From assembly GCA_964443845.1 (NCBI GenBank), contig CAYUFA010000001.1:47025-111024 (forward strand): a stretch of 64,000 bases of DNA. Reading direction: 5' to 3'. Made by a program: the position numbers and the translations under genes. This DNA is from an uncultured Ectothiorhodospiraceae bacterium (GTDB taxonomy: Bacteria > Pseudomonadota > Gammaproteobacteria > UBA9214). The notes under the pieces are model-generated. The model was not told the DNA's origin. It worked only from the letters and a program-made list of their open reading frames with translations, and did no database searches. Positions 13,356 through 14,093 of the stretch are shown here, piece after piece; the stretch's first letter is position 1; the number at the start of each line of letters is the position of its first letter.

Positions 13356-14093
13356 GTGCAGGAACGCTCGCAACCATTGGAAAACCGGCGCAACTATTAC
13401 CGCATACTGCATATCCAGCCGGACGCGCCGGAGGCCATCGTGCGGGCCAGTTACCGGACGCAGATGCAGAAGCTGCGCATGCACCCCGACCTGGGTGGTG
13501 ACGAGTGGAACGCGGCGGTACTCAACGAGGCCTACCAGGTGCTGTCCGATCCGGTCCGGCGCCGGCGCTACGACCAGGCGCGTGCCACCCCGGCGCAGCC
13601 GCAACGCGCAGGCCCGGGCGGCCGGCACGCCCGCAACCCCGAATCCCGGCACGCATCCCGGCCACCCGGCGCGGGTAGCTGCCCGTTCTGCGGTACTGCG
13701 CGCCCGCTACCCGCCACCGACTGCGGCCCGCTGGATTGCCCCGGCTGCCAGGGGCCGGTGGAAAGACCCGGCCACGCCCGCCAGCCGCGGTCCGGCAACC
13801 GGCGCCTGGAGCGGGTTCGGCGGCAGGCCTCCATGGTGCTCTACACGCAACCCGGATGCCGCGGCCTGCAGGCGCGACTGTGTGACCTTTCCCCGACCGG
13901 CCTGCAACTGCAGCTGCCGCGACCGCTCGTCGCCGGACTGCTGGTACGCATCCACAGCGCCCCGGTGAGTGCGATCGGCAGGGTGCGCTACTGCAACCGC
14001 AGCATGAACGGTATGCATTTCCTCATCGGTATCGAGTTCCTGACCGTGCGCTTCGGTGCGCGTACCGGCATATTCCTGTCCACCTGTGCCTGA
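13356..14093 (+). CDS. J-domain (DnaJ-like, HPD motif) – CxxC Zn-ribbon – PilZ fusion protein
   Basis: The N-terminus YYRILHIQPDAPEAIVRASYRTQMQKLRMHPDLGGDEWNAAVLNEAYQVLSDPVRRRRYD is a J-domain. The middle has CPFCG...CPGC. The C-terminus carries the PilZ motifs RRLERVRRQ (RxxxR) and DLSPTG (DxSxxG). It is divergent from fliC and has a GTG start. Confidence 0.75.
   Translation: MQERSQPLENRRNYYRILHIQPDAPEAIVRASYRTQMQKLRMHPDLGGDEWNAAVLNEAYQVLSDPVRRRRYDQARATPAQPQRAGPGGRHARNPESRHASRPPGAGSCPFCGTARPLPATDCGPLDCPGCQGPVERPGHARQPRSGNRRLERVRRQASMVLYTQPGCRGLQARLCDLSPTGLQLQLPRPLVAGLLVRIHSAPVSAIGRVRYCNRSMNGMHFLIGIEFLTVRFGARTGIFLSTCA

Follow-up and report, generated by a model that had tools for sequence, protein, structure and literature searches.

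A J-domain, zinc-ribbon and PilZ protein family with predicted FliA control, encoded beside the flagellin gene of an uncultured Ectothiorhodospiraceae bacterium

Introduction

A 64,000-nucleotide stretch of DNA from an uncultured Ectothiorhodospiraceae bacterium (GenBank assembly GCA_964443845.1, contig CAYUFA010000001.1, positions 47,025 to 111,024 of the forward strand; hereafter, the window) carries a gene for a protein, here called the J-PilZ protein, which joins an N-terminal J-domain, a C4 zinc ribbon and a C-terminal PilZ domain. Profile searches and alignments place it in a single, coherent family with intact motifs for Hsp70 interaction and for binding of cyclic di-GMP (c-di-GMP), and an in-silico analysis of upstream regions predicts that the gene belongs to the FliA (sigma-28) regulon, both in this organism and in a sizeable minority of lineages. 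We tentatively favour the reading that it encodes a class C J-protein of the late flagellar regulon, gated by c-di-GMP, which would bring DnaK to a client connected with motility; we infer the binding of c-di-GMP, the stimulation of DnaK and the nature of this client.

The stopping of flagella by c-di-GMP is known to occur through transcriptional control, through steric braking or clutching of the YcgR type, and through stator exchange. If our reading holds, an Hsp70-recruiting c-di-GMP receptor would add an energy-dependent, remodelling-type route to flagellar control, and the protein would stand out among J-proteins as one of the few gated by a small-molecule second messenger. A first-pass annotation, made from the DNA letters, had proposed that the fusion couples c-di-GMP sensing to Hsp70 recruitment, and this seems a reasonable reading because the architecture and the intact motifs are evolutionarily conserved.

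Gene, start codon and domain architecture

The mechanical open reading frame (ORF) spans 13356-14093 on the plus strand, opens with GTG and would encode 245 amino acids (aa). The true start is probably the TTG at 13377, giving 238 aa, because M-(K/E)-N-R-R-N-Y-Y opens nearly all homologues; AGGAA lies 12 nt ahead of this codon. Residue numbers such as H36, C102, R142 and D170 refer to the 238-aa form, and the Pfam ranges 13-73 and 149-232 to the 245-aa ORF. The G+C content at third codon positions is 0.82, similar to that of neighbouring genes. The coding sequence and its parts are as follows.

13377..14093, plus strand: J-domain / zinc-ribbon / PilZ coding sequence, 238 aa from the probable start TTG 13377 (ORF list and homologues)
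13392..13574, plus strand: J-domain, residues 6-66, with HPD at 13482-13490 (Pfam, PDB profile and AlphaFold2 helices)
13590..13667, plus strand: low-complexity linker, predicted to be disordered, residues 72-97 (predicted local distance difference test, pLDDT, below 50; without conserved columns)
13680..13748, plus strand: C4 zinc ribbon CPFC-N15-CPGC, with C102, C105, C121 and C124 all invariant
13800..14081, plus strand: PilZ beta-barrel, residues 142-235 (Pfam, Foldseek, invariant motifs and AlphaFold2 model)

Both terminal domains exceed their Pfam cut-offs, DnaJ (PF00226) at residues 13-73 with 43.9 bits against 27.8 (E 2.7e-11) and PilZ (PF07238) at residues 149-232 with 28.2 bits against 22.5 (E 2.4e-6). 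The PilZ motifs are RRLER (RxxxR) at 13800-13814 and DLSPTG (DxSxxG) at 13884-13901, separated by the canonical 24 residues, and the second fits the refined [D/N]hSxxG definition (10.1101/814665). The first-pass annotation had described this ORF as a J-domain with an intact HPD, a CxxC...CxxC knuckle and a PilZ domain bearing both c-di-GMP motifs, a description which the profile matches and the alignment below bear out.

The zinc motif differs from the CxxCxGxG finger of DnaJ, and Pfam gave no DnaJ_CXXCXGXG match in the protein. Across the family it follows the pattern CpFC...CxxCxxPL, and a sequence-level profile search of the PDB found weak similarity to the zinc ribbon of eS27 (E 0.12). Pfam matches were likewise absent for PilZN (PF07317) and PilZNR (PF12945) at E <= 0.1, and for an HSP70 domain anywhere in the 238-245-aa protein.

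The AlphaFold2 model (mean pLDDT 74.6) consists of a helical J-domain at residues 1-70, with helices at 7-10, 19-35, 43-57 and 59-70, a disordered stretch at 72-97, a small zinc-ribbon region and a beta-barrel at 145-235. The family profile matches more than 50 solved J-domains in the PDB, including those of DnaJ, Tid1 and CbpA. A fold search was used for the PilZ half because its sequence-level matches to the PDB were insignificant (E about 1 to Alg44). In this Foldseek search the best match of the barrel was the c-di-GMP-bound PilZ domain of BcsA (4p00, E 1e-4), followed by VCA0042 (2rde), MrkH and PP4397, and the N-terminus matched many J-domains.

Conservation and extent of the family

A search of 5.8 billion proteins returned approximately 1000 matches; over 100 of them are full-length relatives, 235-265 aa long. 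When 23 sequences (38-61% identity) were aligned, the HPD (H36-P37-D38), the four cysteines, and R142, R146, D170, L171, S172 and G175 proved invariant. The subfamily of the window's protein shows little or no variation in the basic helix II either, or in the helix III/IV signature (LNEAY...RAAYD). The zinc-ribbon-PilZ half was also used alone as a profile, with matches counted as clusters at 50% identity among 1.84 billion representatives, giving 1281 clusters at E <= 1e-3, 586 at E <= 1e-10 and 64 at E <= 1e-30. It recovered essentially only proteins of 225-250 aa in which the module lies at residues ~100-245 behind a J-domain or J-like domain; the same search found none with the module behind other N-terminal domains, and the shorter matches look truncated. 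Since the profile recovers essentially only such proteins, the tripartite protein is, as judged from sequence, one coherent family. Both PilZ motifs are present in 313 of 317 collected full-length relatives, and the HPD is kept in 236 and lost in 81 of them.

Two variants of the architecture were seen. Some members of 340-365 aa have two J-domains; in P0067, P0074 and P0099 (347-365 aa) these stand in tandem before the zinc-ribbon-PilZ module. The HPD-less relatives form a sister subfamily (P0124-P0137 and others, e.g. ...LRAKPGSVAAEALLDEAY...). At two of its loci, L086 and L087, a metallo-beta-lactamase-fold gene adjoins and an HDOD gene lies about 1 kb away; neither flagellar neighbours nor a clear sigma-28 motif was found at these two loci.

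Promoters of the J-PilZ gene and fliC

The fliC gene and the J-PilZ gene are divergent, as the first-pass annotation had stated, and are separated by a spacer of ~340 bp, which we aligned with those of 11 relatives from the same clade (12 sequences). The relevant features are given below.

12231..13037, minus strand: fliC (flagellin, 268 aa; Pfam Flagellin_N and Flagellin_C), divergent from the J-PilZ gene
13302..13328, plus strand: candidate sigma-28 (FliA)-type promoter of the J-PilZ gene, TCAGGGAG-N11-TTCGATAA (intergenic alignment)
13151..13177, minus strand: candidate sigma-28-type promoter of fliC, TAAAGTTC-N11-GACGCTAT (TTTA and the -10 block conserved)
13038..13147, minus strand: fliC 5' leader of ~110 nt, nearly invariant in the clade, with two hairpins before the Shine-Dalgarno sequence
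17079-17105, plus strand: sigma-28-like site upstream of motA, TACAGTTT-N11-GTCGCTAA (pattern match)

The FliA promoter consensus is TAAAGTTT-N11-GCCGATAA, with a TCAAG-type -35 element in pseudomonads. On the J-PilZ side, the block TCAGG-N-CGATA is the only conserved element in an upstream spacer that is otherwise unalignable among the clade relatives, and in 11 of the 12 sequences, among them that of the window, 29-57 nt separate it from the start codon. Its spacing is that of the FliA consensus, with which it also shares the CGATA -10 core. The candidate on the fliC side is of the same class and lies ~120 bp away. A sigma-70 scan of 12900-15900 found nothing, and the strict E. coli sigma-28 pattern, allowing up to three mismatches, matched solely upstream of motA, so that the divergent pair emerged from the intergenic alignment only. 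As each gene has its own sigma-28-like candidate, the two do not share a promoter, contrary to what had first been suggested.

Loci outside the clade show this signal too. Of 74 loci, 30 have CGATA at -75..-15 of the J-PilZ gene, compared with a frequency of 5.2% in random windows. For the composite motif T[CA]A[AG]N17CGATA there are 49 matches on both strands of 1.75 Mb. Twenty-two of them fall in the 75 nt before a J-PilZ start, for an expectation of 0.086 (> 200-fold enrichment), and the other matches lie mostly inside coding sequence. Among the 22 are those in L024, L025, L031, L037, L045, L052, L056, L060, L062, L078 and L084, all of them loci without flagellar neighbours. Clustering at 55% identity gives 38 clusters, and 8 of these have the strict sigma-28-type motif. 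The composite motif matches twice in the window's 64 kb, once at the J-PilZ gene. These patterns predict that the gene belongs to the FliA regulon, and the flagellar connection put forward in the first-pass annotation is supported by a FliA-type promoter candidate here and in several distant lineages; the adjacency argument on which it had relied holds for one clade only.

Three minor observations were made on these regions. The second composite match in the window lies at 58950-58975 on the plus strand. In L017 and L018 a well-formed TCAAGTTC-N-CGATA stands on the minus strand before a 357-aa ORF near the J-PilZ gene, the product of which has repeated 'DLSGL' segments at its N-terminus. The fliC leader has a fold energy of -44.2 kcal/mol (z = -2.6), carries GGA in its first loop in the window and some relatives, has AAGGAG as its Shine-Dalgarno sequence and found no match in Rfam; it may be a translational control element of the CsrA/FliW type.

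Genomic context and distribution

The survey of distribution and neighbourhoods that the first-pass annotation had proposed as a check covered one genome per GTDB species and gave 175 relatives, the best 80 of which are the genome loci counted here. Taxon labels are mostly gammaproteobacterial (Ectothiorhodospiraceae, Chromatiaceae, Halieaceae and Sedimenticola among them), with others from Acidobacteriota, Calditrichota, Desulfuromonadales, Gemmatimonadota and more.

In the window the J-PilZ gene sits between the fliC-fliD-fliS cluster and an EAL-HDOD-motA-motB block; beyond fliC lie flaG, fliD, fliS, fliT, a sigma-54 activator gene, fliE and fliF. The fliC-divergent arrangement was found by tblastn with the window's flagellar proteins in 13 of the 80 genome loci, and in five further contigs reached by exact protein look-up. 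Together these form the fliC-adjacent clade (L001-L018), in which the J-PilZ protein has 40-59% identity and FliC 77-89%. Two members, L012 (CAVYIJ010000006.1) and L016 (CAWKAE010000010.1), are titled 'uncultured Halobacteria archaeon' yet carry the bacterial fliC-fliD-fliS cluster and the J-PilZ operon, and their FliC has 78-84% identity to that of the window; this label is almost certainly wrong.

On the downstream side, the following genes were found.

14105..15661, plus strand: four small same-strand genes, a probable operon, with short gaps or overlapping stop/start codons
14105-14458, plus strand: DUF3301 membrane protein gene (Pfam DUF3301)
14451-14813, plus strand: 120-aa gene
14943-15182, plus strand: 79-aa gene
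15194-15661, plus strand: 155-aa gene
15840-17045, plus strand: EAL-HDOD gene (Pfam; only the C-terminal half of the EAL profile matched)
17207-18073, plus strand: motA (Pfam)
18070-19020, plus strand: motB (Pfam)

Pfam and NCBIfam profile searches gave no family for the 120-aa, 79-aa and 155-aa proteins, and no matching literature was found for DUF3301. The four-gene block is kept as a unit only in the fliC-adjacent clade, where in one lineage (L004/L005) csrA is inserted directly after the J-PilZ gene; the products of the four genes could be partners or clients of the J-PilZ protein. The EAL-HDOD-motA-motB block downstream is seen in the window only and is absent from all related loci. Searches with MotA, MotB, FliF and the EAL-HDOD protein (tblastn) gave no matches in other loci, except for FliF in three contigs of the clade. 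Beyond this clade, neighbours are conserved only inside sub-lineages.

Proposed mechanism

The J-PilZ protein would be a cytoplasmic class C (type III) J-protein, the targeting module of which is the zinc ribbon together with a c-di-GMP-binding PilZ barrel. Its gene would be transcribed from its own FliA-type promoter, divergently from fliC and probably with the four small downstream genes, and such a promoter would make it a late flagellar-regulon gene, like those of the PilZ motor effectors YcgR and FlgZ. The ligand would be bound by the RxxxR loop, in the linker between zinc ribbon and barrel, and by the DxSxxG strand; by analogy with the docking of PilZN on PilZ in YcgR-type proteins, it may then dock the zinc ribbon on the barrel. 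The docked pair would form a surface that binds a motility-related client, and the flexible linker of ~25 residues would let the HPD-bearing J-domain load DnaK on that client and trigger ATP hydrolysis. In this way a c-di-GMP signal would end with Hsp70 remodelling, taking apart or holding some component of the flagellum.

A motility-related client is favoured because PilZ proteins controlled as part of the flagellar regulon usually act on the motor, and ycgR is a late flagellar gene. The expression of FlgZ, a PilZ protein, depends on FliA and FleQ (PMC3913639), and in YcgR-like proteins a ligand at the inter-domain linker rearranges the PilZN-type domain and PilZ (10.1101/814665).

A specific form of this mechanism, which we consider speculative and rather unlikely, has the sigma-28-controlled, ligand-gated J-protein bring DnaK to the stator, the rotor/switch, the export apparatus or flagellin in order to dismantle, hold or remodel it. 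Were it true, it would amount to a chaperone-mediated means of braking or disassembly alongside the steric brake of YcgR, a previously undescribed mode of c-di-GMP output, and the HPD-less sister clade would be a DnaK-independent derivative. For the role in flagellin or filament proteostasis suggested earlier, adjacency to fliC is the extent of the support.

Alternative explanations

Several observations weigh against the favoured reading of a c-di-GMP-gated J-protein that serves motility. All 80 genome loci belong to metagenome-assembled genomes (MAGs), and the copies in databases likewise derive from metagenomes or MAGs. Adjacency to fliC is confined to the window's own clade: in the other 67 of the 80 genome loci tblastn within 6 kb detected no homologue of any flagellar gene from the window, and when the flanking ORFs of the 80 loci were clustered all against all, no universal neighbour emerged outside the close clade. 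Most clusters (30 of the 38) do not have the strict sigma-28-type motif, and the consensus with which the J-PilZ promoter block agrees may not be that of these hosts. Deletion of DnaJ/DnaK-PilZ genes in Myxococcus xanthus gave no motility, exopolysaccharide or development phenotype (PMC8316039). The 81 relatives without HPD keep the J-like helices, the four cysteines and both PilZ motifs, and members of the wider superfamily therefore need not recruit DnaK; evidently, if such sequences are a guide, the zinc-ribbon-PilZ module can work without DnaK stimulation. Finally, the barrel is modelled without a C-terminal helix, ending in a strand at 233-235 with no helix past residue 70, and PlpA demonstrates that intact PilZ motifs do not prove c-di-GMP binding.

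The missing flagellar neighbours, the lack of a family-wide neighbour and the clusters without the strict motif all favour a general c-di-GMP-responsive Hsp70 co-chaperone with non-flagellar clients, for example in stress or biofilm formation (compare CsdK1/CsdK2-CdbS), the fliC position being a lineage-specific accident. The spread of family labels to Acidobacteriota, Calditrichota, Desulfuromonadales and others agrees with this, as does the characterised link between PilZ and Hsp70, which concerns heat stress and chromosome organisation, not motility (PMC10313047). Against it stand a FliA-type motif that is enriched directly upstream of the gene and occurs in several unrelated clusters, and a fliC-divergent layout that persisted while the J-PilZ protein diverged to ~40% identity. 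We regard this explanation as a serious one, although on balance unlikely.

A brake or clutch like YcgR, acting through the zinc-ribbon-PilZ module with the J-domain as a mere scaffold or localisation device and DnaK not required, would explain why relatives that lack HPD retain a J-like fold, zinc ribbon and PilZ motifs. It is also in keeping with the layout of the protein, where the zinc ribbon takes the place that PilZN has in proteins of the YcgR type and RxxxR falls in the linker between the domains, and with predicted sigma-28-type regulation as for ycgR and flgZ. The (near-)invariance of HPD, helix II and LNEAY...RAAYD in the window's subfamily nevertheless indicates selection for Hsp70 interaction, and the two HPD-less loci examined are without flagellar context, which leaves this alternative distinctly unlikely.

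It is improbable that the PilZ domain is a non-binding protein-protein adaptor, like PilZ of Pseudomonas or PlpA of Myxococcus, in a constitutive, specialised J-protein. The modest Pfam score and the insignificant profile-to-PDB similarity to Alg44 noted above would fit such an adaptor, as would the absence from the AlphaFold2 model of the canonical C-terminal helix. The canonical PilZ core of six strands and a long C-terminal alpha-helix (Galperin & Chou) is indeed not matched by this moderate-confidence model; as far as the model can be relied upon, we take this as a difference to note, not as an exclusion from the PilZ c-di-GMP receptors. Against the adaptor stand two motifs that are invariant, with canonical spacing, across deep divergence and present in nearly all relatives, and a best structural match to a PilZ domain with c-di-GMP bound.

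A curved-DNA-binding, CbpA-like protein or bona fide DnaJ paralogue is scarcely credible: the J-domain resembles those of CbpA and DnaJ, and several homologues bear the source name 'curved DNA-binding protein CbpA' (some of them JGI annotations), but the protein scores 24 bits against a cut-off of 403 for CbpA (NCBIfam/PRK10266) and 37 against 377 for DnaJ (TIGR02349), lacks DnaJ_C and CxxCxGxG domains, and the names are J-domain-only transfers, as the failed NCBIfam cut-offs show.

Relation to known systems

The J-PilZ protein resembles YcgR, FlgZ and MotI (DgrA) in having a C-terminal PilZ domain with RxxxR and [D/N]hSxxG and a c-di-GMP site, in its case predicted, at the linker to an N-terminal partner. 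YcgR and FlgZ belong to the flagellar regulon, and the candidate FliA-type promoter and flagellar neighbours suggest as much for the J-PilZ gene. It differs from them in that the C4 zinc ribbon replaces PilZN/PilZNR and an HPD-bearing J-domain is added, and the output implied by its sequence would be chaperone recruitment, not direct steric braking. We know of no interaction of the J-PilZ protein with MotA, FliG or FliM.

Among class C (type III) J-proteins such as DjlA, HscB and CbpA-like proteins, an HPD-bearing J-domain is likewise joined to an unrelated domain that specifies client or location, without a G/F region, a DnaJ zinc-finger domain or DnaJ C-terminal domains. The difference is that here the specifying module appears to be a second-messenger receptor, which would make J activity ligand-gated; to our knowledge this is not a described property of class C J-proteins.

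CsdK1 and CsdK2 of M. xanthus are characterised PilZ-DnaK chaperones (Seidel et al., PMC10313047). As in the J-PilZ protein, PilZ is fused to a component of the Hsp70 machine and links c-di-GMP signalling to chaperone action; however, in CsdK1/CsdK2 the PilZ domain is carried by the Hsp70 itself and not, as here, by a J co-chaperone, and their function lies in heat stress and the nucleoid, with CdbS as client, in a non-flagellated organism (PMC10313047). DnaJ- or DnaK-containing PilZ proteins are also among the 24 PilZ proteins of M. xanthus that have been catalogued and deleted (PMC8316039). Compared by domain listing, not by sequence, the DnaJ-PilZ proteins in that set have the same Pfam pair as the J-PilZ protein; M. 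xanthus has no flagella or FliA regulon.

The first-pass annotation had not been aware of a functional characterisation of this fusion. A literature search for 'DnaJ-PilZ' gave no match, one for a PilZ domain with a co-chaperone and flagella gave nothing relevant, and the PilZ survey of Galperin & Chou makes no mention of DnaJ, DnaK, J-domains or a zinc ribbon. The claim was nonetheless overstated in view of the Myxococcus proteins: the DnaJ and PilZ domain pair and characterised PilZ-DnaK fusions were already known. What is new is that a compact J / zinc-ribbon / PilZ family has been marked out, with HPD-plus and HPD-less branches, together with the predicted FliA control and clade-specific fliC pairing of its gene. 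The compact size (~240 aa), the mutational handles offered by HPD, the four cysteines, RxxxR and DxSxxG, and the predicted regulon make the hypothesis directly testable with recombinant protein. Should the flagellar link fail, the family would still represent a widespread, unnamed class of c-di-GMP effectors which is mislabelled 'DnaJ' or 'CbpA' in databases.

Other features of the window

Elsewhere in the window, at 48419-53025 on the minus strand, a REC-GGDEF-EAL gene adjoins one for a CHASE8-HAMP hybrid histidine kinase that also has an Hpt domain. The two make up a module for c-di-GMP turnover controlled by a two-component system, and the presence of the REC-GGDEF-EAL protein shows that the organism uses c-di-GMP.

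At 4792-9342 on the plus strand, genes for a 695-aa protein with a methyltransferase domain and for one of 809 aa that weakly matches HAD hydrolases sit between a DUF6998 gene and fliT, as an insertion relative to most related loci. The second of these genes is shared by L006, and the insertion may be a flagellin-modification island.

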